Positions 1,273 to 23,590 of a stretch of 24,000 nucleotides of DNA are shown one piece after another. The DNA is taken from positions 383,438 through 407,437 of the forward strand of contig NZ_CP128988.1 of the NCBI RefSeq assembly GCF_030406045.1. The letters are read 5' to 3'. This DNA comes from Thiohalobacter sp. IOR34. Lineage in GTDB: Bacteria > Pseudomonadota > Gammaproteobacteria > Thiohalobacterales > Thiohalobacteraceae. The translations under genes and the position numbers were made by a program. Under the pieces are notes generated by a model. The model had not been told where the DNA came from. It saw nothing but the letters and a program-made list of their open reading frames with translations, and made no database searches. Each line of letters begins with the position of its first letter. The stretch's first letter is position 1.

Positions 1273-1335
1273 AGAAGCTAGAAGCTAGAAGCTAGAAGCT
1301 AGAAGCTAGAAGCTAGAAGCTAGAAGCTAGAAGCT
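1273..1335. repeat. Tandem heptamer array (AGAAGCT) x9
   Basis: Nine perfect head-to-tail copies counted directly. Each junction creates a CTAG site. Confidence 0.98.
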
Positions 1336-1383
1336 AGAGTAGGAGCGGCCTCCAGGCCGCGATGCGGCGCAAAACGTTGCTAT
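1336..1383. repeat. Conserved core module shared with 17726-17774 (GC hairpin plus TGnTATAGAAT)
   Basis: GTAGGAGCGGCCTCCAGGCCGCGATGCGG is identical (29 nt) at 1339-1367 and 17731-17759. The following segment is near-identical: CGCAAAACGTTGCTATAGAATCC versus GCAAAACGCTGCTATAGAATCC. Hairpin GCGGCC-TCCA-GGCCGC at 1345-1360. Confidence 0.95.
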
Positions 1384-1488
<105 letters not shown>

Positions 1489-2979: not shown

Positions 2980-4038
2980 ATGGACAAGAAGATTCTTTCT
3001 GCAGCCGTCGCCGGCGTACTGGCCGGTTCCATGGCCTTTGCCGCCAATGCCGATGTCACCGTGTTCGGCAAGCTGAACATGAGCATCGATTCTGTCGACG
3101 TCGACGGTGGTTCCGACGACATCAACATGAACTGCACCACCTGCTCCGTGGGCTTCAAGGGCTCCGAGGACCTGGGCAACGGTCTGAAGGCCGTGTTCCT
3201 GATCGACTTCCAGTATGATGGCAGCGAGCGCAACGCTAATGGCGCGCTTACCGATCGTGACCAGTGGGTCGGCCTGGCCGGCGAGGGCTGGGGTTCCGTC
3301 AAGTTCGGCACCATCAGCACCGGTTACAAGAGCACCGGCGCCATGATCGATCCGCTGTACCGCACCTCCGCACAGGCTCGTGGCCTGGGCTTCCAGTCTT
3401 CCCTGCATCTGGGCGCTGGCGAGAACGGCCAGGGCCGCATGACCAACCACGTCCGCTATGACTCCCCGAGCATGAGTGGCTTCAAGGTCATCGTCGACTA
3501 CAGCTTCGACTCCGAAGACGTGACCACCCGTGACGACGACGCCTGGGGTCTGACCGGCGTGTACAAGAATGGCCCGATCCTCGGTTTCGTGTCCTACCTG
3601 ACCAACGACCATGGTGGCGAGGATGACGCCTGGAAGATCGGCGGCAGCTACCAGATCAACGACGAGGCCAAGGTCTTCGCTCAGTACGAGAACGACGGCG
3701 GCCTGATCTCCAGCACCACTGAGCTGGCTGCTGGCGCTGCCTCCAACACCACCAAGGATGCTGACGTCTGGCACATCGGTGCCACCTACACCATGGGCAG
3801 CAACATGCTGTATGCCGCTTATGGTCAGGGTGACGACAACAACACCTCCGGCGCCACCAACACGGCCGAGTACGATACCTGGACCATTGCCGTTGCGCAC
3901 ATGTTCAGCAAGCGTACCTTCGTCTACGGTGGTTACAACAACATCGATTGTGACGGCACCACCGGTAACGTCTGCGGCAGCCGTACCCGCGCAGGCGAGC
4001 AGGATGTCATCACCATCGGTCTGCAGCACAACTTCTGA
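2980..4038 (+). CDS. Outer-membrane general porin (Gram-negative porin family)
   Basis: 352 aa from the ATG at 2980, with an AAGGGGA RBS. Signal peptide MDKKILSAAVAGVLAGSMAFA/ANA. Alternating beta-strand pattern, Gly/Asp/Asn-rich loops, and a C-terminal ...ITIGLQHNF ending in Phe, typical of beta-barrel OMPs. The track ORF start at 2803 is an unsupported extension. Confidence 0.88.
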   Translation: MDKKILSAAVAGVLAGSMAFAANADVTVFGKLNMSIDSVDVDGGSDDINMNCTTCSVGFKGSEDLGNGLKAVFLIDFQYDGSERNANGALTDRDQWVGLAGEGWGSVKFGTISTGYKSTGAMIDPLYRTSAQARGLGFQSSLHLGAGENGQGRMTNHVRYDSPSMSGFKVIVDYSFDSEDVTTRDDDAWGLTGVYKNGPILGFVSYLTNDHGGEDDAWKIGGSYQINDEAKVFAQYENDGGLISSTTELAAGAASNTTKDADVWHIGATYTMGSNMLYAAYGQGDDNNTSGATNTAEYDTWTIAVAHMFSKRTFVYGGYNNIDCDGTTGNVCGSRTRAGEQDVITIGLQHNF

Positions 4039-4154: not shown

Positions 4155-4408
4155 CCGGAAGCATACCTGTAGCTAGGGTTCAAGGGCGATCGGCCAGGAT
4201 GCGCAGCCAGATGCGTCCTGACAAAATCGCCGGGAGCGATTTTGAACAGCCGCAAGGCTGGCCCGAAGGGCGGAGGGCAGGATGCCCGGAGTCAATCGAA
4301 TAGGCGCAAAGCGTACCCCGCCACGAGGGCCTATTTGCGAGCCTCCTGGCCTTGTATACCAGCCTGCACTCCGATCATGCGGGCCGCCTTGGTGCAATAT
4401 GCGGGCTA
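4155..4408. repeat. Degenerate, one-ended copy of the 251-bp dispersed element at 21999-22249, in inverted orientation relative to it
   Basis: GTGCAATATGCGGGCTA at 4392-4408 equals the terminal repeat of the other copy. Hand alignment of the reverse complement shows blocks shared with 21999-22190: TAGCCCGCATATTGCAC, GCCTATTCGA, GATCG/CCCTTGAACC, ATGCTTC. This copy carries a ~70-nt insertion and has no second terminal repeat. Confidence 0.7.
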
Positions 4409-4443
4409 GAGACTTGAACTCGTCCTTGAGTACATGGACCGGC

Positions 4444-5616
4444 TCAGGTCTGGTAGTCGATGCTGATCCGGTTTCCGGCGACGGGACGGAAACGCTGGTT
4501 GGCGAAGGCGACGTGCGCCGGGTGTTCCCGGTAACTGTCGATGACCCGCGGGTGGCAGAAGCGCACCAGCCAGGTGTAGCGGTAGCTCGCGTCCGTCTGC
4601 ACCGCTTCCCCGGTGATCACTTCGCGCACGCCCGGAATGGCGGACAGCACCCGGCGGCCTTCTTCCATCATCGCCTGCACGTCCACCATGTCCGGCTTGT
4701 CCACGTTGTAGATGATCAGGTGTTCCACCGGCGTCCACGCGCGGCAGCGGGCCAGCACTTCCGCCGCCCGGCCCGCGGCGCCCCACAGGCGCATGCAGCG
4801 TTCCACTTCCTCTGCGATCGCCTCCCGCACCCCGTTCACCGCGCCGGGCCAGGAGCCCTTCTTTTGCCGGGCGAGATTCTGCCGGAGCCGGTTCGCCGCG
4901 GCGTCGGCCAGTGCGGAATAGCAGTTGATCTTGGTGATGCCGTTGGCAATCAGCCGCCGGTACTGGTCGTCGGACAGGCCGGAACCGCCGTGAATGACCA
5001 GCGGAACGTCCAGCGCATCCCGGATCTGCTTGAGCCGGGCATAGTCCAGCCGCGGCTTGCCCTTCATCCTTCCATGCACGGTACCGATGGAGACGGCGAG
5101 GAAATCGATCCCGGTGCGTTCCACGTAGGCCTTCGCTTCCGCCAGCGAGGTATGGGACAGTTCTCCGGGAAAGGTTTCCGCTCCTTCCCCCTCGACGCCG
5201 GGAACGTAGCCCAGTTCCCCTTCCACGGCCACGCCGCAGGCGTGCGCGGTCTCCACCACTTCCCGGGTTCTGCGGGTGTTCTCGGAGAAGTCCAGGTGCG
5301 AGAGATCCACCAGCACCCCGTTGCAGCCGCGGTTGATCCCCCGGATTGCGGACTCGACACTCGTGCCGTGATCGAAATGAATCGCCACCGGCACCTGCGC
5401 GCGCATGGCGGCCTCCTCGACCGCGGGCATCAGCAGATCGAAATCGAAATACGGGAAATGCGTCTCCGCCAGGCTCAGGATCAGCGGCGCCCTCGCCCGC
5501 TCCGCAGCCTGTACGATGCCTTCCAGAAAATCCAGGCTCACCACCTCGAAGGCACCCACGGCATAGCCGTGTTCCCGGGCGTGTCCGAGCATGTCTTTCA
5601 TGTCAACGATCGGCAT
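4444..5616 (-). CDS. Class II fructose/ketose-bisphosphate aldolase fused to a C-terminal Dabb (stress-responsive alpha/beta-barrel) domain
   Basis: 390 aa with an AAGGA RBS. Residues 1-~285 are FbaA/GatY-like: MPIVDMKDMLGHAREHGYAVGAFEV, HFDHG, GTVHG, VIHGGSG. Residues ~297-390 are VEHLIIYNV...AIPGV...YREHPAHVAF...ISIDYQ, which matches the Dabb domain pattern. Last gene of the cbb operon. Confidence 0.9.
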   Translation of the reverse strand: MPIVDMKDMLGHAREHGYAVGAFEVVSLDFLEGIVQAAERARAPLILSLAETHFPYFDFDLLMPAVEEAAMRAQVPVAIHFDHGTSVESAIRGINRGCNGVLVDLSHLDFSENTRRTREVVETAHACGVAVEGELGYVPGVEGEGAETFPGELSHTSLAEAKAYVERTGIDFLAVSIGTVHGRMKGKPRLDYARLKQIRDALDVPLVIHGGSGLSDDQYRRLIANGITKINCYSALADAAANRLRQNLARQKKGSWPGAVNGVREAIAEEVERCMRLWGAAGRAAEVLARCRAWTPVEHLIIYNVDKPDMVDVQAMMEEGRRVLSAIPGVREVITGEAVQTDASYRYTWLVRFCHPRVIDSYREHPAHVAFANQRFRPVAGNRISIDYQT

Positions 5617-5642
5617 GGTTCCTTACCCTTTTACAACAGACA

Positions 5643-5996
5643 TCAGCCAAGCCGGGCTTCCAGTTCGTCCCGAATCATGGCCAGCATCCTTTCCCGCAGG
5701 CTGCTGGCCATGTAATGATAGTAATTCAGGGTACAGCCCACCGGCGTGTGCAGGCTGCTTCGCCCCGCATCCTCGAAATCCGTCCAGGCCAGCAGCGGCA
5801 GATCGTACTGGTTCTGATCCACCACCACCCAGTCGTCCTCCTCGACGATCAGTACGATCTGGCTGCGCCCCGGATATGCGACGCGCAGCGGAAGCAGCCT
5901 GTGCAGGCGCGCCCGCCGCCACAGGTTGTAGAGCGTGGCATCCACTTCCTCCCTGCGCGTCGCGTAGACCGGCATGTCTCCGATGCGCGTGCCCAT
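5643..5996 (-). CDS. Hypothetical protein (117 aa) between cbbO and the aldolase gene
   Basis: The ATG lies 3 nt after the cbbO stop, and the aldolase gene follows 26 nt downstream. Codon usage (GC3-rich) matches neighbouring genes. I recognise no domain. The alternative-frame ORFs here are Arg/Pro/Ala junk. Confidence 0.6.
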   Translation of the reverse strand: MGTRIGDMPVYATRREEVDATLYNLWRRARLHRLLPLRVAYPGRSQIVLIVEEDDWVVVDQNQYDLPLLAWTDFEDAGRSSLHTPVGCTLNYYHYMASSLRERMLAMIRDELEARLG

Positions 5997-5999
5997 GCG

Positions 6000-8345
6000 T
6001 CATGCGGTCAGGCTGGCGAACAGCAGCGGCAACTGTTCCGGCAGGCGCTCCACGTGATCGATGATCGTGTACTGGTTCTCGCCGAATATGCGCTTGACGT
6101 AGCTGTCCGCCATGGGATCCAGCGTCAGGCAATAGGACAGCACCCCGTTGGCATACAGTTCCTCGACTGCTTTTTTCGTGTCGTGGCGCAGGTGCTGCGG
6201 ATCCTGCTCGTCGATGTCCGCCGGCTCGCCGTCGGTTACCAGCAGGATCAGCTTGCGCCTTTCCTGCTGCCGCAGCAGGTGCTGTCCCGCATGGCGCAGC
6301 GCCGCTCCCATGCGGGTGGACAGTCCGCCCTTCATGCCCGCGAGCCTTGCCTTGGCCTCGTCATCGAAATGCTGGCTGAAATCCTTGAAGCGGTAGTATT
6401 GCACATCGTGACGGCCGTCCGATGCGAAGCCGTGCAGGGCGAAGGGATCGCCGATGCCCTCGATCGCCGTAGCCACCAGCGTGGCCGCCTCGCGGGTCAG
6501 TTCCAGCACGGTCTTGTCGCTGTCGCCGACGCGCTCGTTGGTGGACTCGGACAGATCCAGCAGCACCACCACGGCCAGGTCCCGGGTCTTGAGCACGTTG
6601 CGCATGGTGATGCGGGGGCTGGGCTGCTCGCCCATGCGCAGGGCGACCATGGCGTCCACGGCCGCGTTGATGTCGATCTCGTCTCCGTCCTCCAGGCCCC
6701 GCTGGCGCTGCACGCCCGCCGGCGCCAGCAGATCGATGATCTGCCGGATGCGGTGGGCGACGGGCTTGTACAGGGTGAGGATGCGATCGATCTCCTCCGC
6801 ATCGCCCCGTGGCTGGCGCCGTTCATAGACGGTGACCCAGTCGGGACGGTGGAGCTGAATCTGGTAGTCCCACTCGTGGTAGTGATAGGGATCCGAGACC
6901 GGCTCCTTGCCCCACATCTCGTTGAAGGTTTTCGTGTTGTCGGTCAGGTCGTCCTCGTAGGGGCGCATCGCCGTCGAACAGATCCAGACTTCCTGCGCGT
7001 CGTCGCCGGCCAGTTCGCAATCGACCTCGTTGGCCATCTCGATGACACTCACGTGCTTGCGCACCTGACGCTGGCTCGCGGCGACATACTCGACGCCGCG
7101 GTTCCAGTCGATTTCCTCGAAGCGCCAGATCATGCGATTGTCGTCCCGGTAGGGGATGCGATAGCGCTCCAGGATGCGCAGGCTGGGCACTGCGCGGCGT
7201 CCGGCGAAGATGTTGTAGAGTTCGATGCCCATCATCCAGGAAAAGTGGTTGTCGTCCTGATTGGCATCGATGTTCTCGTGGAACCTGTCGACGAAAGCAT
7301 CGATCTGCTCGTCTCCGCTGCGGACGCTGCCGTCGAGAAGCTGCAGAGCCAGTTTCTCCAGCACCGGCACCGTCTCGTGTTCCACCGGCTCGTCGTATTC
7401 CGCCTGCATCAGGGAGAGCCAGAGCCGCTTCAGTCCGGGGAAGCTGCTGACCGCCTTGTATTCTATGCGCGCATCCTCCAGCAGGCCGACGAAGAACATC
7501 TGTGCCGGGCTGAGCTGTTCCGCCGAGACCGGGCTGCGGGTATACATCATGTGCGCGGCCATGTGCGCGGCCGTGGCCCGGTAGATCTCCAGCCCGGGAA
7601 TGTCGCCGAGATCGTCCAGCGCATCGGGGACATGGATGATCCGGTCCTCGATGTAGGGACGGAAGTCCGTGTAGTCGGCACCGGTGGGGCGCAGGAAGAA
7701 GTCGCGGCCCCACAGGGCGCGCAGGTAGAAATTGATCTTGCGCTGGATCCTCACGAACAGCACGCCCCGGCGTTCCTTTTCCAGCATCGCGCGGCTGTCG
7801 GCGGACTGCAGGTTGAAATAGGAGGTCAGGTTGTCGAAGTCGCGGCGGTAGGCCTGGGCGCCGAAATTGGCCCAGCGGCGCAGCCCGCTCAGGGTCAGCT
7901 TGGAGAGCAGCTCATCGATGTGGTTGAGCATGGGCCGCAGGCCACGGGCCGCGGTCGAGGCGAGCTGGTGGATCAGCGTCAGGTAGCCGCGCACCAGTTG
8001 CGCGTCTCCCAGGTGACGGGACACGGACGGCAGGCTGGCGAACAGCAGGGTGATGACCTCGCCCGAGGTCATCGAGGAGACCTTCATCGCCGCCGTAATG
8101 ACATCCGGGATGATGTCTTCCCCGCATTCCCTTGCGACCAGCGGCATCTCCTCGAGATAGGTGGTGACCAGGTCGTGTCCGCGCCGCAGGTTGATCAGCG
8201 CACGGGCGCCGTCCAGGTAGTCCCCCAGCCCGGCCGGGGACATGATGCGGGCGGCTTCGTGGAACGTGCTCTCCAGCACCTCGCGGATCTCGGGAACGGC
8301 TTCTTCCAGGAACTCCGCGTAATCTTCAAGTTTTACGGATGACAT
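6000..8345 (-). CDS. cbbO: RuBisCO activase adaptor subunit CbbO (von Willebrand factor A domain)
   Basis: 781 aa, the usual CbbO/NorD length. C-terminal VWA domain with a MIDAS-like DLSES motif (AVVVLLDLSESTNE). Located directly downstream of cbbQ. Confidence 0.92.
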   Translation of the reverse strand: MSSVKLEDYAEFLEEAVPEIREVLESTFHEAARIMSPAGLGDYLDGARALINLRRGHDLVTTYLEEMPLVARECGEDIIPDVITAAMKVSSMTSGEVITLLFASLPSVSRHLGDAQLVRGYLTLIHQLASTAARGLRPMLNHIDELLSKLTLSGLRRWANFGAQAYRRDFDNLTSYFNLQSADSRAMLEKERRGVLFVRIQRKINFYLRALWGRDFFLRPTGADYTDFRPYIEDRIIHVPDALDDLGDIPGLEIYRATAAHMAAHMMYTRSPVSAEQLSPAQMFFVGLLEDARIEYKAVSSFPGLKRLWLSLMQAEYDEPVEHETVPVLEKLALQLLDGSVRSGDEQIDAFVDRFHENIDANQDDNHFSWMMGIELYNIFAGRRAVPSLRILERYRIPYRDDNRMIWRFEEIDWNRGVEYVAASQRQVRKHVSVIEMANEVDCELAGDDAQEVWICSTAMRPYEDDLTDNTKTFNEMWGKEPVSDPYHYHEWDYQIQLHRPDWVTVYERRQPRGDAEEIDRILTLYKPVAHRIRQIIDLLAPAGVQRQRGLEDGDEIDINAAVDAMVALRMGEQPSPRITMRNVLKTRDLAVVVLLDLSESTNERVGDSDKTVLELTREAATLVATAIEGIGDPFALHGFASDGRHDVQYYRFKDFSQHFDDEAKARLAGMKGGLSTRMGAALRHAGQHLLRQQERRKLILLVTDGEPADIDEQDPQHLRHDTKKAVEELYANGVLSYCLTLDPMADSYVKRIFGENQYTIIDHVERLPEQLPLLFASLTA

Positions 8346-8428
8346 CGGCGCACACCATTACAGGAAAACGGATCGGGAACCCCGCTGTCCGGCACCGGAT
8401 TTTCCGGCCCCGCGGGGGGATTCGGAAG

Positions 8429-9244
8429 CTATCCCAGGAAGGTCTGCACCGCGGCATTCAGGGTGTCCTGCATGTCCGGGTCGTCGGTCAGCGGTGTGAC
8501 CATGGTGATGGTGCAGGCCGCTTCCGGGTCCACGCCCTTGCTGATGAGCTGGCCGGCATAGACCAGCAGACGGGTGGAAATGCCCTCGTCCAGGCCGTGC
8601 CCCTTGAGGTTGCGTGCGCGGTGGGCGATCTGCACCAGTTTTTCCGCGATGGCCTCGTCCACCCCGGACTCCTTCGCGACGATGGCCACTTCGAGTGCGG
8701 TCTCGGGATAATCGAAGCTCAGTCCGCCGAAGCGCTGCTTGGTGGACTGCTTGAGATCCTTCATCAGGCTCTGGTAGCCGGGGTTGTAGGAAATCACGAG
8801 CTGGAAGTCCGGGTGGGCCTCGATGAGCTCGCCCTTCTTGTCCAGGGGCAGAACCCGGCGGTGATCGGTGAGGGGATGGATGACGACCGTGGTGTCCTGC
8901 CGTGCCTCGACCACTTCGTCGAGATAGCAGATGGCGCCGATGCGCGCGGCCGTGGTCAGCGGCCCGTCCTGCCACCGGGTGCCGTCCTTGTCGAGCAGGA
9001 AGCGGCCGACCAGGTCGGATGCGGTCATGTCCTCGTTACAGGCCACGGTGATCAGCGGCTTGCCGAGTTTCCAGGCCATGTATTCGACGAAGCGCGACTT
9101 GCCGCAGCCGGTCGGCCCCTTGAGCATCATGGGCATGCGGGCCTGGTATGCCGCCTCGTAGTATTCGATTTCCTTGCCGACGGGTTGGTAAAAGGGTTCA
9201 TCGCTGATGATGTACTGTTTCGGATCTGTGTTTGTATCGGACAT
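8429..9244 (-). CDS. cbbQ: RuBisCO activase AAA+ (MoxR-type) ATPase CbbQ
   Basis: Strong CbbQ/NorQ similarity: [66 protein letters not shown], with Walker A GPTGCGKS. The start was chosen at the third in-frame ATG (9244, 271 aa) because GGGGA lies 5 nt upstream. ATGs at 9250 and 9256 are possible. Confidence 0.93.
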
Positions 9245-9274
9245 GCTCATCCCCATTCATACGGGTTCGGTGTT

Positions 9275-9586
9275 TCAGTCTTCGTGTGCGGTTTCATGCT
9301 CTCCGGACCAGCCTGCTGCCCTGGCCCTTTCCAGCGCACGGCCGTGGATGTCCCGGTGACGCGCCGCCAGCGGTTCGGGCAGGTTGCTGACCAGGCAGCC
9401 ATGCCTGTCCCACTCCGCATTCACTTTCTGCATCAGGGCGTCGATCATGGGAAGGCTCCAGCCTTCACAGGTCTCGCTTTCATCGAGAATGCCGAACACC
9501 CAGGCATCACGGATGATCTTGCCGATGCTGGTCATGCCACCGTTGATATCCCGATCGATGCCGACGTATTTGTCCGGTCTGCTCAT
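9275..9586 (-). CDS. Hypothetical protein (103 aa) inserted between cbbS and cbbQ
   Basis: ATG at 9586 preceded by AGGAGAC with 6-nt spacing. Host-like codon usage. The stop lies 18-30 nt before cbbQ. Sequence MSRPDKYVGIDRDINGGMTSIGKIIRDAWVFGILDESETCEGWSLPMIDALMQKVNAEWDRHG... contains no domain I recognise. The track ORF start at 9655 lacks an RBS. Confidence 0.65.
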   Translation of the reverse strand: MSRPDKYVGIDRDINGGMTSIGKIIRDAWVFGILDESETCEGWSLPMIDALMQKVNAEWDRHGCLVSNLPEPLAARHRDIHGRALERARAAGWSGEHETAHED

Positions 9587-9615
9587 GGAAATGTCTCCTG
9601 CACGGTTAGGGTATT

Positions 9616-9652
9616 CCGTTTCCGGCCACGCCTGTGCGCGACCGGAAACGGA
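9616..9652 (-). promoter_or_regulatory. Intercistronic stem-loop just downstream of cbbS
   Basis: 11-bp perfect stem TCCGTTTCCGG (9616-9625 region) / CCGGAAACGGA (9642-9652) with a 16-nt loop. There is no U run after it on the mRNA strand, so it is more likely a stabiliser or partial terminator than a full terminator. Confidence 0.4.
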
Positions 9653-9658
9653 CATTCC

Positions 9659-10006
9659 TCAGACCACCTTGCCCCGGTAGATCACCATGGCGGCACCGGC
9701 AGACTGCGCAAAGTTGTCGAAGCCGAGCAGACGCACGTGGTTGTTCGGGTGCGCTGCATGGCAGGCTTCCACTTCCTTGAGAATGGCGTCCACGTCGGTT
9801 TCACCGAACATGGGCAGCTTCCACATGTACCAGTAGTGGCCGCCGGCATTCTCCGGTTCGGTATGTTCGATACCCGGGTTCCAGCCCTTGCTGACGATGT
9901 ACTCGATCTGGGTGCGGATCTGCTCCGGGGTCATCTCCGGAAGGTAGGAAAAGGTTTCGAACTTGCGGCTCGAGGGATCACTCAAGCTTGACTGATAATC
10001 TTGCAT
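9659..10006 (-). CDS. cbbS: RuBisCO small subunit (form IA)
   Basis: 115 aa. [37 protein letters not shown]...[14 protein letters not shown] is typical of CbbS/RbcS. Located 72 bp downstream of cbbL. Confidence 0.96.
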
Positions 10007-10043
10007 GTTGTTACTCCTGAATCGATATAAAAATTTCCGGTTC

Positions 10044-10067
10044 CCGCCGTGCCGGCCGGCACGGCGG
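10044..10067 (-). promoter_or_regulatory. Perfect 24-bp GC palindrome in the cbbL-cbbS spacer
   Basis: CCGCCGTGCCGG|CCGGCACGGCGG counted directly. It would form a 10-12-bp hairpin in the mRNA between the two RuBisCO cistrons. Confidence 0.4.
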
Positions 10068-10078
10068 AATCCTTGCGC

Positions 10079-11497
10079 TTACTTGTGGGAAACGTCCAGC
10101 TTGTCGACGGTGTCGAACTCGAACTTGATTTCCTTCCAGGTTTCCATTGCCGCGGCCAGCTCGGGGCTGTGCTTGGCGGCAGCGGTAAGGATGTCCTTGC
10201 CTTCCTTCTCGAGTTCGCGACCCTCGTTGCGGGCCTGCACGCAGGCTTCCACGGCAACGCGGTTGGCAGCGGCACCGGCAGCGTTGCCCCAGGGGTGGCC
10301 CAGGGTGCCGCCACCGAACTGCAGCACGGAATCGTCGCCGAAGATGCTGACCAGGGCCGGCATGTGCCAGACGTGGATGCCACCGGAGGCAACCGGAAGC
10401 ACGCCGGGCATGGCGCCCCAGTCCTGATCGAAGAAGATGCCACGTGAACGGTCTTCCTTGATATAGGAGTCGCGCATGATGTCGATCCAGCCCAGGGTCG
10501 CGTCGCGGTCGCCTTCCAGCTTGCCGACCACGGTGCCGGAGTGCAGGTGATCACCGCCGGACAGACGCAGGATCTTGGTCAGCACGCGGAAGTGGATGCC
10601 GTGGTGCGGGTTGCGATCCAGCACGGCGTGCATGGCGCGGTGAATGTGCAGCAGCATGCCGTTGTCGCGGCACCACTGGGCCAGCTGGGTGTTGGCGGCC
10701 CAGCCACCGGTGAGGTAGTCGTGCATGATGATCGGTGCGCCGATTTCCTTGGCATATTCGGCACGCTTCATCATTTCATCGGCGGTCGGTGCAGTCACGT
10801 TCAGGTAGTGCCCCTTGCGCTCGCCGGTCTCGGCCTCGGCCTTCTGGATGGCTTCCATGACGAAATCGAAACGGTGCTTCCAGCGCATGAAAGGCTGGGA
10901 GTTGACGTTCTCGTCGTCCTTGGTGAAGTCCAGACCGCCACGCAGACCCTCGTAGCAGGCGCGGCCGTAGTTCTTGGCGGACAGGCCCAGCTTCGGCTTG
11001 ATGGTGCAGCCCAGCAGCGGACGGCCATACTTGTTCAGCATGTCGCGCTCGACCTGGATGCCCTGGGGCGGTCCGTTGCAGGTCATCACATAGGCCAGCG
11101 GGAAACGCACGTCTTCAAGGCGCAGGGCGCGCAGAGCCTTGAAACCGAACACGTTGCCGACCAGCGAGGTCATGACGTTGACCACCGAACCTTCCTCGAA
11201 CAGATCGATGGGGTAAGCAACGAAAGCGTAGAAGCAGGTGTCGTCGCCCGGCACGTCCTCAATGGCATACGCGCGGCCCTTGTAGTAGTCCAGATCGGTC
11301 AGCAGATCGGTCCAGACGGTGGTCCAGGTACCGGTCGAAGACTCGGCGGCCACGGCCGCGGCCACTTCTTCACGGGGCACGCCGTCCTGGGGGGTGACCT
11401 TGAAACAGGCCAGAATGTCCGTGTCCTTGGGGGTATAGTTGGGGTCCCAGTATGTTTCGCGGTACTCTTTCACGCCCGCGTCGTAGGTTTTAGCCAT
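10079..11497 (-). CDS. cbbL: RuBisCO large subunit (form I, green-type/IA)
   Basis: 472 aa from the ATG at 11497, with a GGAGAG RBS. Begins [34 protein letters not shown] and includes [10 protein letters not shown] (carbamylated Lys region) and [12 protein letters not shown]. Full-length similarity. The track ORF start at 11578 adds 27 unsupported residues. Confidence 0.98.
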
Positions 11498-11616
11498 TTT
11501 GCTCTCCAGTGTTCGTCCAACGTTATGCCGCGGCCACGCCGCGTGGTGGACATAGTGCCCAAACCCGGGTATAAGCAAAAATCAATAGTTTCTATTTTTG
11601 ATATAGATGTTCAGCT
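11498..11616. promoter_or_regulatory. Divergent cbbR/cbbL control region with an AT-rich imperfect dyad (candidate CbbR operator)
   Basis: 119-bp intergenic region. The AT-rich segment 11570-11610 contains ATCAA-N12-TTGAT (11581-11602) and CAAAAATAG/CTATT..TTTTTG dyad symmetry. LysR regulators typically bind such dyads between divergent genes. Promoter hexamers are not confidently identifiable. Confidence 0.4.
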
Positions 11617-12579
11617 ATGGCCTACTCCACCGCCGACAAGCTCATCCGCCATCTCACCCTGCGCCAGTTGCAAATCTTCGAGGCCGTCGTCCGGCTCGGC
11701 GGCTATACCCGTGCGGCCGGGGAGCTGCATCTCACCCAGCCGACGATTTCCATGCAAATCAGGAAGTTGTCGGAAACGCTCGGCCAGCTCCTGCTGGAGC
11801 AGGTGGGCCGCCACATCCAGCCCACCCAGGCCGGCCGCGAGGTCTACGCCGCGGCCCGGGACATCCTCGACCGCATGGTCTCCCTGGAGGAAACCACCAA
11901 CGAGCTGGAACGAATCGTCAAGGGACCGCTGCGCATCGCGGTCATCACCACGGCGAAATACTTCATGCCCCACCTGCTCGGGGCATTCATCGATCGATAT
12001 CCGCAGGTCGAGCCGCACCTGGTCGTCACCAACCGCTCCAAGGTGCTGACGCGCCTGAAGTCCAACGAGGACGATCTGCTGATCATGGGCCAGGTCCCCG
12101 AATACATGGATGTGGAAGCCCACCCCTTCGTGGACAACGAGCTGGTCGTCGTGGCCCATGCCCGCCATCCCCTGGCCCGGCGCAAAAAGCCCCTGACCCT
12201 CGCGCAACTGTGCAAGGAACGCTTCCTGGTGCGCGAACCCGGTTCCGGTACCCGCCTGGCGGTGGACCGGCTGTTCGCCGGGCAGGGTCTGAAGATCAAT
12301 CCCTACATGGAGCTGGGCAGCAGCGAGGCCATCAAGCAGGCGGTCATGGCCGGGCTGGGGCTGTCGGTCCTGTCCCGCCACAACCTGCGCCTGGAACTGG
12401 AATGCGGGCACATCGCCGTGCTCAAGGTGGAAGGTTTTCCCCTGATCCGGAGCTGGTACGCGGTGCACCTCAGGGGCAAGAAACTGCCACTGGTACCGCG
12501 CACCTTTCTCGAATTCCTGCTGCGGCAGGGCAAGGACATGATGGCGCACCAGCCTGCCGCAGGACAGGCAAACGCCTAG
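11617..12579 (+). CDS. cbbR: LysR-family transcriptional regulator of the cbb operon
   Basis: 320 aa. N-terminal wHTH LRQLQIFEAVVRLGGYTRAAGELHLTQPTISMQIRKLSE, plus a LysR substrate-binding domain. Divergent from cbbL, the classic CbbR arrangement. Confidence 0.9.
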   Translation: MAYSTADKLIRHLTLRQLQIFEAVVRLGGYTRAAGELHLTQPTISMQIRKLSETLGQLLLEQVGRHIQPTQAGREVYAAARDILDRMVSLEETTNELERIVKGPLRIAVITTAKYFMPHLLGAFIDRYPQVEPHLVVTNRSKVLTRLKSNEDDLLIMGQVPEYMDVEAHPFVDNELVVVAHARHPLARRKKPLTLAQLCKERFLVREPGSGTRLAVDRLFAGQGLKINPYMELGSSEAIKQAVMAGLGLSVLSRHNLRLELECGHIAVLKVEGFPLIRSWYAVHLRGKKLPLVPRTFLEFLLRQGKDMMAHQPAAGQANA

Positions 12580-12644
12580 CCGCATGCTGCTCACCAGCCT
12601 GTTGGCGCGCTGTTCTGCTTTTGCGGGCCCCGGCGGCTTGATGG

Positions 12645-12819
12645 CCACGGGAAACACGGAAGGCACAGAGGTGAGCTTTTGCAATGGCCACGAAATCCAC
12701 GAACGATCTACCAAGCAAGCGGCATGTGGCGGACCTTCATGCATGCCTTGTACGGGTTTTCGTGGGTTTAGTGGGTTTCGTGGCTATGGCTTTTTCCGTG
12801 CCTTCCGTGTTTCCCGTGG
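12645..12819. repeat. 175-bp imperfect palindromic (REP/MITE-like) element built from CACGRAA sub-repeats
   Basis: Perfect 22-bp inverted arms CCACGGGAAACACGGAAGGCAC (12645-12666) / GTGCCTTCCGTGTTTCCCGTGG (12798-12819). Inner arms are partly complementary: GCCACGAAATCCACGAAC versus GTGGGTTTCGTGGC. It lies between the cbbR stop and the next gene. Confidence 0.85.
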
Positions 12820-12930
12820 TCATGGTTCGTTGTTCCGCGGCCAGCCGGGAAAGGGAATTCCGCGCTCATTCCGGCGCCGGAATCGGCTAGAATAGCCGCC
12901 ACACATTCAATTCACCTAAGGGTCGTCCGC

Positions 12931-16988: not shown

Positions 16989-17654
16989 TCAGCCCTTGCC
17001 GGTCAGGGTCCTCACCCCTTCCTGGGTACCGAGCAGCAGCACGTCAGCGGGGCGCAGGGCGAAGATGCCAACGGTGACGACGCCGGGGATGTTGTTCAGC
17101 TCGTCTTCCAGCCTGGCCGGTTCCATGATCTGCAGATCGTGAACGTCGAGGATGATGTTGCCGTTGTCGGTGGTAAAACCCTCGCGCAGTACCGGGCGCC
17201 CGCCGTGCTTGACCAGTTCGCGGGCGACGAAGCTGCGGGCCATGGGGATCACCTCGATAGGCAGCGGGAAGGCGCCGAGCACATCGACCAGCTTGGACTC
17301 GTCGGCGATGCAGACGAACTTCTCCGCGGCGCCGGCAACGATCTTCTCGCGGGTCAGCGCGCCGCCGCCACCCTTGATCAGGTGCAGATAGCGGTTGGAC
17401 TCGTCGGCGCCGTCGATGTACACCGAGAGGCCATCCACCGAGTTGAGATCGAAGACCGGGATGCCGTGACTCTTGAGCCGCTCGGCGCTGGCCACTGAAC
17501 TGGCCACGGTGCCCTCGATGCGGCCCTTGATGCCGGCCAGGGCATCGATGAACATGTTGGCGGTGGAGCCGGTGCCGACACCGATCACGGTGCCGGGCAC
17601 CACGTATTCCAGGGCCGCCTCGGCGACCTGGCGCTTGAGTTCATCCTGGTTCAT
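16989..17654 (-). CDS. rpiA: Ribose-5-phosphate isomerase A
   Basis: 221 aa from the ATG at 17654, with GGAGA 8 nt upstream. [40 protein letters not shown] parallels E. coli RpiA (MTQDELKK...GVGTGST). Confidence 0.95.
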
Positions 17655-17704
17655 CTGCCTGTCTCCATGCAATGCAAGTCGTTGCGGGAATGATACAGGA
17701 AGAC

Positions 17705-17774
17705 GGAAGTCAGGGGCCAGGAGAGAGAGGGTAGGAGCGGCCTCCAGGCCGCGATGCGGGCAAAACGCTGCTAT
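17705..17774. repeat. Degenerate heptamers plus the conserved core module (second copy)
   Basis: In-phase degenerate units GGAAGTC, AGGGGCC, AGGAGAG and AGAGGGT (17705-17732) run into the core GTAGGAGCGGCCTCCAGGCCGCGATGCGGGCAAAACGCTGCTAT (17731-17774). Hairpin at 17737-17752. TGcTATAGAAT at 17769-17779. Confidence 0.95.
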
Positions 17775-17935
17775 AGAATCCAGAATCCAGAAGCCAGAAG
17801 CCAGAAGCCAGAAGCCAGAAGCCAGAAGCCAGGAGCCAGGAGCCAGGAGCCAGGAGCCAGGAGCCAGGAGCCAGGAGCCAGGAGCCAGGAGCCAGGAGCC
17901 AGGAGCCAGGAGCCAGGAGCCAGGAGCCAGGAGCC
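17775..17935. repeat. Tandem heptamer array: (AGAATCC) x2, (AGAAGCC) x6, (AGGAGCC) x15
   Basis: 23 perfect in-phase 7-bp units (161 bp) counted directly. The blocks are ordered so that neighbouring blocks differ by one substitution. Confidence 0.98.
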
Positions 17936-17936
17936 A

Positions 17937-17973
17937 GATGCGGCATAAAATGCCGCCATAGAATCCAGGAGGC
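17937..17973 (+). promoter_or_regulatory. Third, partial copy of the core 3' half, giving a candidate -10 (TAGAAT) for ilvA
   Basis: GATGCGGCATAAAATGCCGCCATAGAATCCAGGAGG parallels GATGCGGGCAAAACGCTGCTATAGAATCCAG (17753-17783). Hairpin GCGGCA-TAAAA-TGCCGC. TAGAAT at 17959-17964 lies ~30-50 nt upstream of the possible ilvA starts. Confidence 0.4.
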
Positions 17974-18012
17974 GCAAGTTTCCGGGCTCTGGTGCCGTGC
18001 TATCATCGCTGC

Positions 18013-19545
18013 ATGCCTGATCGTTACCTGAAGATGATCCTCAACGCCCGTGTCTATGACGTCGCGCGGGAGACGCCGCTGGAGTATGCGCAGCGGCTCA
18101 GCGAGCGTTGCGGCAACCGGGTGTGGATCAAGCGCGAGGATCTGCAGCCGGTCTTCTCCTTCAAGCTGCGCGGTGCCTACAACAAGATCGCCCACCTCTC
18201 CGATGCGGAGTGCGCGCGCGGCGTGATCGCCGCCTCGGCCGGCAATCATGCCCAGGGGGTGGCGCTGGGTGCGCAGCGGCGCGGCATCAAGGCGCTGATC
18301 GTCATGCCGCGGACCACGCCACAGATCAAGACCGCCTCGGTGCGGTCCCTGGGGGCGCGCATCGTGTTGCACGGCGACAGCTACGACGAGGCCCATGCTC
18401 ATGCCCGGCAGCTGGCCGAGGAACGTGGCCTGGTGTTCATCCATCCCTTCGACGACCCGCTGGTGATCGCCGGCCAGGGGACGGTGGGCATGGAGATCCT
18501 GCGTCAGCACAGCGGTTCGCCGGAGGTGATCTTCGTGCCGGTCGGGGGTGGCGGGCTGATCGCCGGCATCGCCGCCTACGTCAAGGCGCTGCGCCCGGAG
18601 ATCCGCATCGTCGGCGTGGAACCGGACGATGCGCCCAGCCTGCACACGTCTCTGGCCCGCCGCCGGCGGGTCGAGCTGAAGCAGGTCGGCATCTTCGCCG
18701 ATGGGGCGGCGGTGCGGCTGGTCGGCAAGGAGCCCTTCAGCCTGGCGCGCCGCTTCGTCGACGAGGTGATCCTGGTCAGCACCGACGAGATCTGTGCGGC
18801 GATCAAGGACATCTATGACGATACCCGCTCCATTGTCGAGCCGGCCGGGGCGCTGTCGCTGGCCGGGATGAAGAAATACGTCGCCGCCAGCGGCCTGCGC
18901 GATGCCGAGCTGGTGACCATCAACAGTGGCGCCAACATCAACTTCGACCGCCTGCGGCATGTCGCCGAACGGGCCGAGCTGGGCGAACGGCGTGAGGCGT
19001 TGCTGGCGGTGACCATCCCCGAGCGTCCGGGCAGCTTCCGGCGCTTCTGCAAGGCGCTGGGCCAACGCAGCATCACCGAGTTCAACTACCGCTATTCCCA
19101 TGCCAGCCAGGCCCGGGTGTTCGCCGGCGTCGAGCTAAGCAGTGGCGAGGAGGAACGGCTGCGCATCATCGAGCGCCTGGAGAAGGAGGGCTATCCGGTG
19201 CTCGACATGACCGACAACGAGATGGCCAAGCTTCATGTGCGGCACATGGTCGGCGGGCATGCGCAGGGCGTGGAACACGAGATTCTCTACCGCTTCGAGT
19301 TCCCGGAGCGGCCGGGGGCGTTGCTGCGCTTTCTGACCGCCATCGGCCAGAAATGGAACATCAGCCTGTTCCACTACCGCAACCACGGCGCCGCCTACGG
19401 CCGGGTGCTGGTCGGTATCCAGGTGCCGCCCGCCGACCGCGCGCGCTTCCGCAGTTTCCTCGACAGCGTCGGCTATCGCTGCTGGGAGGAGACCGGCAAC
19501 CCCGCCTACGATCTGTTCCTCGCGCCCCGCAGCCCGTCCGGCTGA
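18013..19545 (+). CDS. ilvA: Biosynthetic threonine dehydratase (threonine ammonia-lyase)
   Basis: ~510 aa. PLP-enzyme core REDLQPVFSFKLRGAYNKIAHL (Lys in FKLRGA) and two C-terminal ACT-like regulatory repeats, collinear with E. coli IlvA. The start is uncertain: ATG 18013 (chosen) or GTG 17992. Divergent rpiA/ilvA pairing as in pseudomonads. Confidence 0.93.
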   Translation: MPDRYLKMILNARVYDVARETPLEYAQRLSERCGNRVWIKREDLQPVFSFKLRGAYNKIAHLSDAECARGVIAASAGNHAQGVALGAQRRGIKALIVMPRTTPQIKTASVRSLGARIVLHGDSYDEAHAHARQLAEERGLVFIHPFDDPLVIAGQGTVGMEILRQHSGSPEVIFVPVGGGGLIAGIAAYVKALRPEIRIVGVEPDDAPSLHTSLARRRRVELKQVGIFADGAAVRLVGKEPFSLARRFVDEVILVSTDEICAAIKDIYDDTRSIVEPAGALSLAGMKKYVAASGLRDAELVTINSGANINFDRLRHVAERAELGERREALLAVTIPERPGSFRRFCKALGQRSITEFNYRYSHASQARVFAGVELSSGEEERLRIIERLEKEGYPVLDMTDNEMAKLHVRHMVGGHAQGVEHEILYRFEFPERPGALLRFLTAIGQKWNISLFHYRNHGAAYGRVLVGIQVPPADRARFRSFLDSVGYRCWEETGNPAYDLFLAPRSPSG

Positions 19546-23392: not shown

Positions 23393-23590
23393 AAGAGGCG
23401 ACACCCTCCGCCCTGCCGTCGCGGCCGTCGACCTGAACCGGAAGTTCAAGTGGGGACAACGTCACCGTCTTCAGGCTTACCGTCATCGCGGTCATGCACA
23501 CCGATCGGTGCCAGCCATGTCCCCGGGGTCGATGATTGTCGGCTCAGGAATTAAAAGTCCGCTAACGCACAACGCAGGGGGTGTCTGCCG
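23393..23590 (-). ncRNA. ssrS: 6S RNA
   Basis: The minus-strand sequence shares blocks with E. coli 6S RNA: CCUGAGCCGA, AAGCCUGAAGACGGUGAC (E. coli AAGCCUUAAAACUGCGAC), CUUGAAC...GGUUCAGG. The 5' end GGCAGACACCCCCUGCG pairs with the 3' end CGGCAGGGCGGAGGGUGUCGCC, closing a long rod. Syntenic zapA-ssrS-ygfA position. Ends are accurate to about +/-10 nt. Confidence 0.85.

Follow-up and report, generated by a model that had tools for sequence, protein, structure and literature searches.

A heptanucleotide array adjoining a REP-type element between the divergent rpiA and ilvA genes of Thiohalobacter sp. IOR34

In Thiohalobacter sp. IOR34 (Gammaproteobacteria, Thiohalobacterales), the divergent genes rpiA and ilvA are separated by a spacer in which a tandem array of 23 perfect heptanucleotides adjoins a palindromic element of the repetitive extragenic palindromic (REP) type. 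We analysed it within a 24-kb stretch of this genome, called the window here, and all window positions count from its first letter. The two genes encode ribose-5-phosphate isomerase A (rpiA, 16989–17654, minus strand; NCBIfam NF001924, 5e-90) and biosynthetic threonine ammonia-lyase (ilvA, 18013–19545, plus strand; TIGR01124, 2e-243), and the spacer between them measures 358 bp. The IlvA encoded in the window is 100% identical to the protein of this strain. Alignment with close relatives places the whole REP-plus-array block as an insertion relative to them. We think it reasonably probable that a REP insertion and the array grown beside it by slippage are a tolerated by-product, at most uncoupling the two promoters incidentally; the array itself would then have no selected function.

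A regular-expression search of the window found the array to be a single unbroken run of 161 bp (17775–17935). It comprises three blocks on the plus strand: AGAATCC x2 (17775–17788), AGAAGCC x6 (17789–17830) and AGGAGCC x15 (17831–17935), the last also recovered by Tandem Repeats Finder (TRF), whose call for the array spans 17787–17937 with a period of 7, 21.6 copies and 99% matches. This composition, with adjacent blocks one substitution apart, agrees with a preliminary description of the region made from the sequence alone, and so does the presence of in-phase degenerate heptamers upstream. The latter are purine-rich (GGAAGAC GGAAGTC AGGGGCC AGGAGAG AGAGG; 17698–17730, plus strand) and abut the head of the REP element. 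Read on to 17732, where the last unit becomes AGAGGGT, they keep the register of the array at an offset of 77 nt, or 11 x 7. They align loosely with ACGGGTGAGGAGTGAGGAGG of the relatives and are probably diverged native sequence. A terminal degenerate unit on the far side, AGGAGGC (17967–17973, plus strand), is probably native as well, the relatives carrying GAGGAGG at this place. On the strand shown, T occurs twice in the 161 nt of the array. Each AGGAGCC/AGGAGCC junction also creates CCAGG, a match to the Dcm-type site CCWGG, giving about 15 candidate sites in tandem at 17831–17935.

The core that stands between the degenerate heptamers and the array, GTAGGAGCGGCCTCCAGGCCGCGATG-CGGGCAAAACGCTGCTATAG, is by its sequence features a REP-type palindromic element of a catalogued REP class. 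GTAGGAGCGGCCTCCAGGCCGCGATG has a GTAG head and, next to it, a 6-bp GC stem that encloses a 4-nt loop; the stem is present in the centroid fold. This part, REPa (17731–17756, plus strand), consists of the head, the hairpin GCGGCC-TCCA-GGCCGC and GATG, and was delimited by the recurrence of a 26-mer, the centroid fold and metagenome matches. It is followed by REPb (17757–17776, minus strand; CGGGCAAAACGCTGC + TATAG), a decayed inverted partner in which a hairpin remnant is joined to TATAG where CCTAC is expected; such decayed partners end in TATAG or CATAG. The alignment of three copies, and comparison with doublets such as that of contig L081, delimit REPb and point to its outer end, ATAGAATCC, as the source of the first array unit. 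A second copy of the REPb module, REPb' (17936–17966, minus strand; AGATGCGGCATAAAATGCCGCCATAGAATCC), follows the array as a third, incomplete copy of the core's 3' half, and contains a hairpin with a perfect 7-bp stem at 17940–17956. The three REPb copies of the window all terminate in ATAGAATCC, and AGAATCC, with which the array begins, is thus the heptamer that ends the element itself.

REP heads were located with family-specific patterns, a generic GTAG-plus-hairpin detector having proved too strict where stems have 5 bp and too lax within genes. The core 26-mer occurs twice in the window (1342 and 17734), both times in intergenic DNA, against 0 occurrences in 100 shuffles, which bears out its earlier description as a conserved core. 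The GTAGGAGCG head is found at 17731 and 1339. Table 1 of Nunvar 2010 gives the same GTAGGAGCG...CGCGA frame for REPs associated with REP-associated tyrosine transposases (RAYTs) in Pseudomonas putida W619, Xanthomonas axonopodis and X. campestris (PMC2817692). By the preliminary description, the element would be common and not novel if it proved widespread and already catalogued as a known REP family; the core does belong to a catalogued class, whereas the heptamer arrays as such are no REPs.

When metagenome contigs were scanned, GTAGGAGCGGCCNNNNGGCCGCGATG matched at least 133 sites on at least 120 contigs. Inverted doublets (...GATG-spacer-ATCGCGGCC....GGCCGCTCCTAC), the arrangement of a REP doublet forming a hairpin (REPIN), make up most of the matches listed. 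On one of these contigs (L130), an open reading frame (ORF) at 12269–12727 (152 aa) matches PF01797 Y1_Tnp (IS200-like, 9e-11) and contains RAYT-type motifs; in the segment 12040–12960 this gene has REP doublets on both sides, with the head and stem of the window's REPa. A search of the window for RAYT motifs was negative. The core 23-mer had no match in the GTDB genome collection, and all fetched loci lacked the 3' half of the core (CTATAGAATCC), so that this form of it is so far specific to IOR34.

The nearest accessible genome, Thiohalobacter sp. GCA_027000115.1 (L201), has an IlvA 85% identical to that of IOR34 and is syntenic from rplM to ilvA. Its rpiA–ilvA spacer measures 92 bp, as does that of a second relative (L202), and a third (L001) has 120 bp, against 358 bp in IOR34; the edges of the spacer are conserved. 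The spacer of L201 holds no REP and a single repeat, GTGAGGA x2.1, L202 is the same, and L001 lacks the element; GTGAGGA reaches about x4, in inverted orientation, in a further relative (L203). The focal array is missing from all relatives compared.

Two short motifs persist at the edges of the spacer. On the rpiA side, ATGATA (reverse complement TATCAT; 17690–17695, minus strand) is a -10-like box lying outside the inserted block and conserved in the window, L201, L202, L204 and partly L002; the edge motif that includes it, GCGGNANATGATAC (ATGATAC), stays about 36 nt from the rpiA start across the relatives. On the ilvA side, TGCTATCAT (17998–18006, plus strand) is an extended -10-like box 6 nt before the ilvA ATG, conserved in the window and in L201–L204; in general form, TG(C/T)TATCAT sits 6–7 nt ahead of the ATG, with no Shine-Dalgarno sequence. 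Neither box was called by the consensus promoter scan, and a consensus scan for sigma-70 promoters and terminators over 17500–18200 returned zero sites. We take the edge motifs to be the putative -10 boxes of rpiA and ilvA, and the position of the latter suggests that the ilvA mRNA of this clade is leaderless or near-leaderless. On this reading, the block sits in the dispensable middle of a back-to-back promoter pair and widens the distance between the two boxes from about 39 bp to 305 bp. Because the relatives' spacers of 92–120 bp lack the array and the conserved boxes lie outside the block, the latter is an insertion and not a native regulatory region. This runs against the earlier proposal that the array occupies the regulatory space of both genes: conserved motifs lie outside the block, and no displaced upstream site is in evidence. 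A 92-bp back-to-back promoter region of two housekeeping genes would thus absorb much foreign, expandable DNA provided that the -10 boxes at its edges are kept.

Other relatives carry other DNA at the same place. The spacer insert of L204 is a different REPIN (GTAGGTCGGATTAGGCCC...), that of L002 is a GTAG-headed palindrome enclosed by inverted degenerate heptamers (GGGGCGA GGGGCTT GGGACTA GGGGTTA), and in L203 (CTCACTC), about x4, adjoins CCTAC. In the Thiohalobacter-like L203, a DUF4160/DUF2442 gene pair (75–605) stands directly upstream of ilvA in the place of rpiA, while L202, from the same metagenome, retains rpiA. The site appears to be an insertion hot spot.

A sister composite with the same core occurs at 1273–1488 of the window, directly after the gene for tRNA-Gln (1144–1217) and its terminator. 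Its left array, AGAAGCT x9.4 (1273–1338, plus strand; TRF and alignment with L201), abuts the GTAG head; the core of REPa and decayed REPb follows (1339–1385, plus strand; copy alignment), then the right arrays, AGAATCC x8 and AGGAGTC x7 (1384–1488, plus strand; TRF and regular expression). The arrays on the two sides of this core are out of phase by 6 nt, and a shared register is accordingly no conserved trait of the composites. At this locus the alignment with L201 is clean across the tRNA gene, the terminator and GGTCGA(G/T)GGGTGAGAAGCTAG, and breaks afterwards. Where the window has GTG(AGAAGCT)x9.4, L201 carries one native AGAAGCTAG (AGAAGCT(AG), x1.3; GTGAGAAGCTAGCC). The left sister array therefore grew in place from native sequence, as this alignment with a single native copy attests.

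In the neighbourhood of the same tRNA gene, a gene of family PF05635 (23S rRNA intervening sequence protein, IVP, a four-helix bundle) is inserted between rpsI and tRNA-Gln in L201 (1466–1818, truncated) and in the locus L091 (630–1055, full-length), and is missing in the window. The borders of this insert are inverted degenerate heptamer mini-arrays (ATACAAG AGACAAG ATACAAG ... CTTGTAT CTTGCAT CCTGAAT CTTGTAT). As these mini-arrays flank the PF05635 gene, heptamer arrays also border an insert that is not a REP.

The window has two intergenic loci of period-7 arrays in 24 kb. All perfect short-period runs in the window (periods 4–12, at least 3 copies) are of period 7, in five blocks. The relatives' IlvA loci, 1.4 Mb in total, contain one perfect period-7 run outside L055 (Thiohalophilus thiocyanatoxydans DSM 16326, 21.5 kb), which by itself has six blocks. 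The concentration in the window is far beyond chance. Counting one genic TRF hit as well, the density of arrays is about 167 per Mb in the window versus about 5 per Mb in the relatives' loci with L055 set aside, and in this lineage the arrays are specifically of period 7. A gammaproteobacterial metagenome-assembled genome (L012) has multi-block hexamer arrays at 3612–3723 and 17000–17149, for example (TCGAAA)5(TCGGGG)4...(CGATAC)6 and (TCGTTG)6(TATCGG)6...(CGATTT)n. Here blocks are arranged in the same way but with period 6, which points to a preference of period that differs from one lineage to another.

These elements can be assembled into a scenario. A REP-type element, made of a GTAG-headed hairpin and a decayed partner ending in ATAGAATCC, would have inserted midway in the short divergent rpiA/ilvA promoter region. 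A 7-bp microsatellite would then have grown beside it by replication slippage, or slipped-strand mispairing, from two seeds: the heptamer at the end of the element, AGAATCC, and a purine-rich motif of the native sequence, AGGAGNN. Variants due to single substitutions, or to hybrid formation at a junction (AGAAGCC), would each have been amplified into pure blocks, which are consistent with tandem duplication through slipped-strand mispairing. AGGAGCC, the distal unit, is similar to the native AGGAGTG/AGGAGGA, and taking out the 31-nt REPb' joins AGGAGCC seamlessly to AGGAGGC and then to the native flank. AGAAGCC is one substitution away from each neighbouring unit and, instead of a temporal intermediate, may be a hybrid formed where two arrays of separate seeding meet. 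The preliminary description had read the graded blocks as a record of stepwise mutation followed by block expansion; in-place growth is indeed evident at the sister locus, where L201 has a single AGAAGCTAG, but AGAAGCC is explained equally well as a junction hybrid, and the gradation may therefore not reflect an order in time. Period-7 arrays are a known bacterial class whose excess has been put down to slippage (Mrazek 2007, as cited in PMC4679880 and PMC4692102). Given its position upstream of both putative promoters, the array should not be transcribed from that of either gene.

Several observations weigh against an origin by local slippage after REP insertion. The order of units is alike at both loci, with AGAATCC proximal to the core and AGGAG[C/T]C farther out, and AGGAGTC has no native seed at the sister locus yet is similar to the motif native to the focal one. 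Such features hint that arrays may travel with the element or be exchanged between loci, their origin not always being local. The unit families of Thiohalophilus recur at several loci, usually within 25 bp of a GTAG head, which pure local slippage does not predict. Slippage leaves the exclusive period of 7 unexplained. The putative promoter boxes are assigned from conservation alone, and the copy-number differences at hand are those between related genomes.

On another reading, which we hold possible but doubtful, the heptamer arrays would be an integral, enzyme-linked part of the REP/RAYT mobile system and no product of passive polymerase slippage: the Y1 transposase would generate, expand or contract them by nicking beside the GTAG head and rejoining out of register, or they would serve as arms of the mobile unit. 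In the window, the array lies 1 nt from the GTAG head at the sister locus and 0 nt from it at REPb. Among the 13 period-7 arrays that TRF finds in L055, eight are at most 25 bp from a GTAG head, all eight on its head side, and 10 are at most 81 bp away, when about 13% of random positions fall within 150 bp of a head; here unit families recur at several loci, and REPINs carry inverted array pairs such as (AGTTGGC)n ... (ACTGCCA)n. Comparable layouts exist on metagenome contigs, (ACCAGGC)x8 - REPIN - (GCCTGAC)x11.6 in L112 and (CGGTTTC) - REP x4 - (AAACCGG) in L188. Over all fetched loci, 8 of the 31 arrays of period 7 lie within 100 bp of a GTAGGAGC head, against 1 of 53 for period 6, 0 of 13 for period 8 and 0 of 31 for period 9. 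The E. coli transposase TnpA(REP) cuts at CT dinucleotides to both sides of a REP and can transfer strands (PMC3479197), and every unit type of the window has a CT on the strand carrying the adjacent head. However, some units of L055 (AGTTGGC / ACTGCCA) have no CT on the head strand, most metagenome REP sites are array-free (6 perfect 7-mer arrays in 737 kb), and no RAYT gene was found in the window. Moreover, the AGAAGCT array derives from native sequence and not from imported DNA, and arrays also flank the PF05635 gene, a non-REP insert, in L201 and L091. The apparent association is inflated, too, by the confinement of both REPs and simple sequence repeats (SSRs) to permissive intergenic DNA. 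That the arrays are made or resized by a REP-associated Y1 transposase, nicking at the CT of one unit and rejoining at that of another so as to form extensible arms of the REP or REPIN, is in our opinion unlikely. If true, it would provide a mechanistic reason for the dominance of 7-nt units among the long SSRs of Xanthomonas, cyanobacteria and sulfur oxidisers, a bias reported in 2007 and attributed so far only to the polymerase-slippage hypothesis. The recurrent contact of arrays with GTAG heads in Thiohalobacter, Thiohalophilus and several metagenome contigs would, if genome-wide, tie two poorly understood classes of repeats together and suggest a testable enzymatic origin for the heptamer excess.

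The remaining explanations concern function, or the assembly itself. The array could act as a tunable spacer, gain or loss of 7-bp units altering the distance and helical phase of the divergent rpiA/ilvA promoter elements and modulating expression. Its position between divergent genes invites the idea, the copy number of related arrays differs between relatives, and gene regulation by promoter SSRs is known from other bacteria (review: PMC4679880). The -10-like boxes nevertheless lie outside the block, the array does not separate a -35 from a -10, the relatives function with 92 bp, and the spacer comparison revealed no conserved upstream operator. Furthermore, rpiA and ilvA are housekeeping and not contingency genes, the sister array follows a tRNA terminator without comparable promoter geometry, and the heptamer arrays of Xanthomonas are under-represented between divergent genes and give no regulatory signal (PMC4692102). 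Such tuning strikes us as quite improbable. On geometrical grounds, a period of 7 bp would give three orientations 240 degrees apart, and no net planar bend is expected. Sequence-specific binding, either of a nucleoid or regulatory protein reading the heptads in DNA or of a protein of the cold-shock type on an AGGAG-rich transcript, is still harder to support. The units do include the Shine-Dalgarno-like AGGAG, a TAGAAT hexamer at the end of the core faces the array, and MacGregor 2015 speculates that cold-shock proteins bind heptamer repeats (PMC4679880). Yet the TAGAAT hexamer has no -35 partner and no promoter call, the array shows no structure beyond shuffles and no Rfam family, no start codon follows AGGAGG at 17967, and the units are wholly different between species; we judge binding very improbable. 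Finally, mis-assembly could have produced the array or altered its length, since errors in length readily affect perfect short tandem repeats. This we find scarcely credible: the source contig is 2.96 Mb long, the block boundaries are clean, the same architecture occurs at two separate loci, and independent assemblies (Thiohalophilus DSM 16326, L112 and L188) show comparable arrays beside REPs.

Three other candidates were tried and rejected. The focal element is not a long hairpin resembling a miniature inverted-repeat transposable element (MITE), for it folds no better than shuffles: z = +1.15 as DNA and z = -1.14 as RNA, hence no significant structure, with just two small REP hairpins persisting. 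A MITE-like long hairpin does suit the inverted arrays of Thiohalophilus, L112 and L002. Coding ORFs at 17754–17948 (plus strand) and 17771–17977 (minus strand) were discarded because the 7-nt period cycles through all three frames, no ribosome-binding site is present and they overlap with real genes. A G-quadruplex was discarded since AGAATCC, AGAAGCC and AGGAGCC contain no G3 tract, GG being the longest. The Rfam scan of the window at gathering thresholds matched only tRNA-Gln and 6S RNA, and left the spacer without a match.

By itself, the focal array adds another heptanucleotide microsatellite to those of bacteria and would make a good marker for strain typing. Head-to-tail units beyond chance, several intergenic loci and copy numbers differing between related genomes place it with the long heptanucleotide SSRs. 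The preliminary description knew of no equivalent in proteobacteria, an opinion overturned by heptamer arrays described in Xanthomonas, Beggiatoaceae and Thiocystis, Geobacter and Burkholderia. In Xanthomonas, GGGAATC forms 186 arrays of 2–26 units, with 70 inverted pairs, and Rehm et al. 2015 report them as not linked to mobile elements (PMC4692102). In common with IOR34, the host is a gammaproteobacterium, perfect or heterogeneous 7-nt arrays occupy many intergenic loci, often paired around a centre, their length varies among close relatives, the units share GAATC and GTAGGAGCG-type REPs are present too (PMC2817692). However, Xanthomonas units have G3 tracts, are capable of forming G-quadruplexes and prefer 4 units per array, whereas IOR34 units lack GGG and form blocks of 2, 6 and 15 units (9, 8 and 7 at the sister locus), fused to a REP and, at the focal locus, set between divergent genes, where Xanthomonas arrays are under-represented. 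The G3–G4 tract per unit that defines the G-quadruplex heptamers of Xanthomonas and Nostoc is accordingly absent here.

TAACTGA direct repeats occur in Beggiatoaceae, Thiocystis, cyanobacteria and Bacteroidetes (MacGregor 2015, PMC4679880). They, too, are intergenic heptamers of sulfur-oxidising Gammaproteobacteria, sometimes mixed, and Thiohalophilus L055 has the near-identical TAACTGC. They differ by having mostly 2–6 copies of one dominant unit immediately upstream of start codons, where a role in translation is proposed, while the IOR34 array is long, uses other units, lies upstream of both promoters and adjoins a REP. Geobacter has GGGACCG x4 (PMC2700814), and heptamer arrays are reported in Burkholderia and Chloroflexus (PMC6749651). 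Among SSRs at promoters, AGAT of Moraxella uspA2 is phase-variable in a host-adapted pathogen (cited in PMC4679880). Such SSRs are likewise tandem repeats near a promoter whose copy number can change, but they have units of 1–5 nt and lie inside the promoter or 5' untranslated region of surface or contingency genes, whereas the IOR34 array lies outside the putative promoter boxes of housekeeping genes. The short tandemly repeated repetitive (STRR) sequences of cyanobacteria share with IOR34 tandem 7-nt units, an intergenic position and several unit types per genome; they belong to another phylum than this gammaproteobacterium and their unit sequences are unrelated. STRR units are CCCCAGT, TTGGTCA and CAACAGT, and we know of no REP linkage for them. 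These heptanucleotide repeats (Mazel 1990) are cited for Calothrix PCC7601 in PMC4692102.

The core agrees with known REPs and REPINs (PMC2817692; Bertels and Rainey 2011, PMC3116915; Di Nocera 2013, PMC3733652) in its GTAG head, short GC palindrome and GTAGGAGCG...CGCGA frame, and its family forms inverted doublets and flanks a Y1 transposase gene in L130. It departs from the usual REP or REPIN by a decayed inverted partner and by heads extended with 7-bp tandem arrays. The string 'heptam' occurs 0 times in two REP papers (PMC3733652 and PMC2817692), our searches of the literature on Thiohalobacter genomes found no mention of these repeats, and the REP and heptamer-repeat literature searched did not describe a coupling of arrays to REP heads. 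With heptamer arrays in proteobacteria and the REP class of the core already known, only the tight link between array and REP seems new; arrays abutting REP heads, found also in Thiohalophilus and several metagenome contigs, seem not to have been described before.

Arrays of another unit length were seen elsewhere in the window. Upstream of a 1279-aa DUF3683/FAD-oxidase gene, inverted arrays of about 9-nt units (CCACGGGAAACACGGAAGGCAC ... GTGCCTTCCGTGTTTCCCGTGG) occupy 12641–12823. At the orthologous place in L201 (4416–4771), the same TTCCGTGGN units form 37-nt inverted arms nested around a GTAGGATGGGCAAAGG REPIN, and on the metagenome contig L104 TCCTCCGTG x3 stands beside a REP (19–44). The units of about 9 nt in the window, L201 and L104 look like a sequence-specific array family conserved across species.

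Other parts of the window deserve brief mention. The stretch 4282–12900 (about 9 kb, from a porin gene to the DUF3683 gene) has no counterpart in the otherwise syntenic L201. The three ORFs tested at 4282–9991 (477, 998 and 550 aa, the first two overlapping at 5346–5715) match no Pfam family, and a gene for the large subunit of RuBisCO lies at 10079–11578 (minus strand) inside the same block. Towards the end of the window, the 6S RNA gene ssrS (23401–23583, minus strand; Rfam RF00013, 84.6 bits) adjoins the gene for 5-formyltetrahydrofolate cyclo-ligase, which is its usual arrangement.

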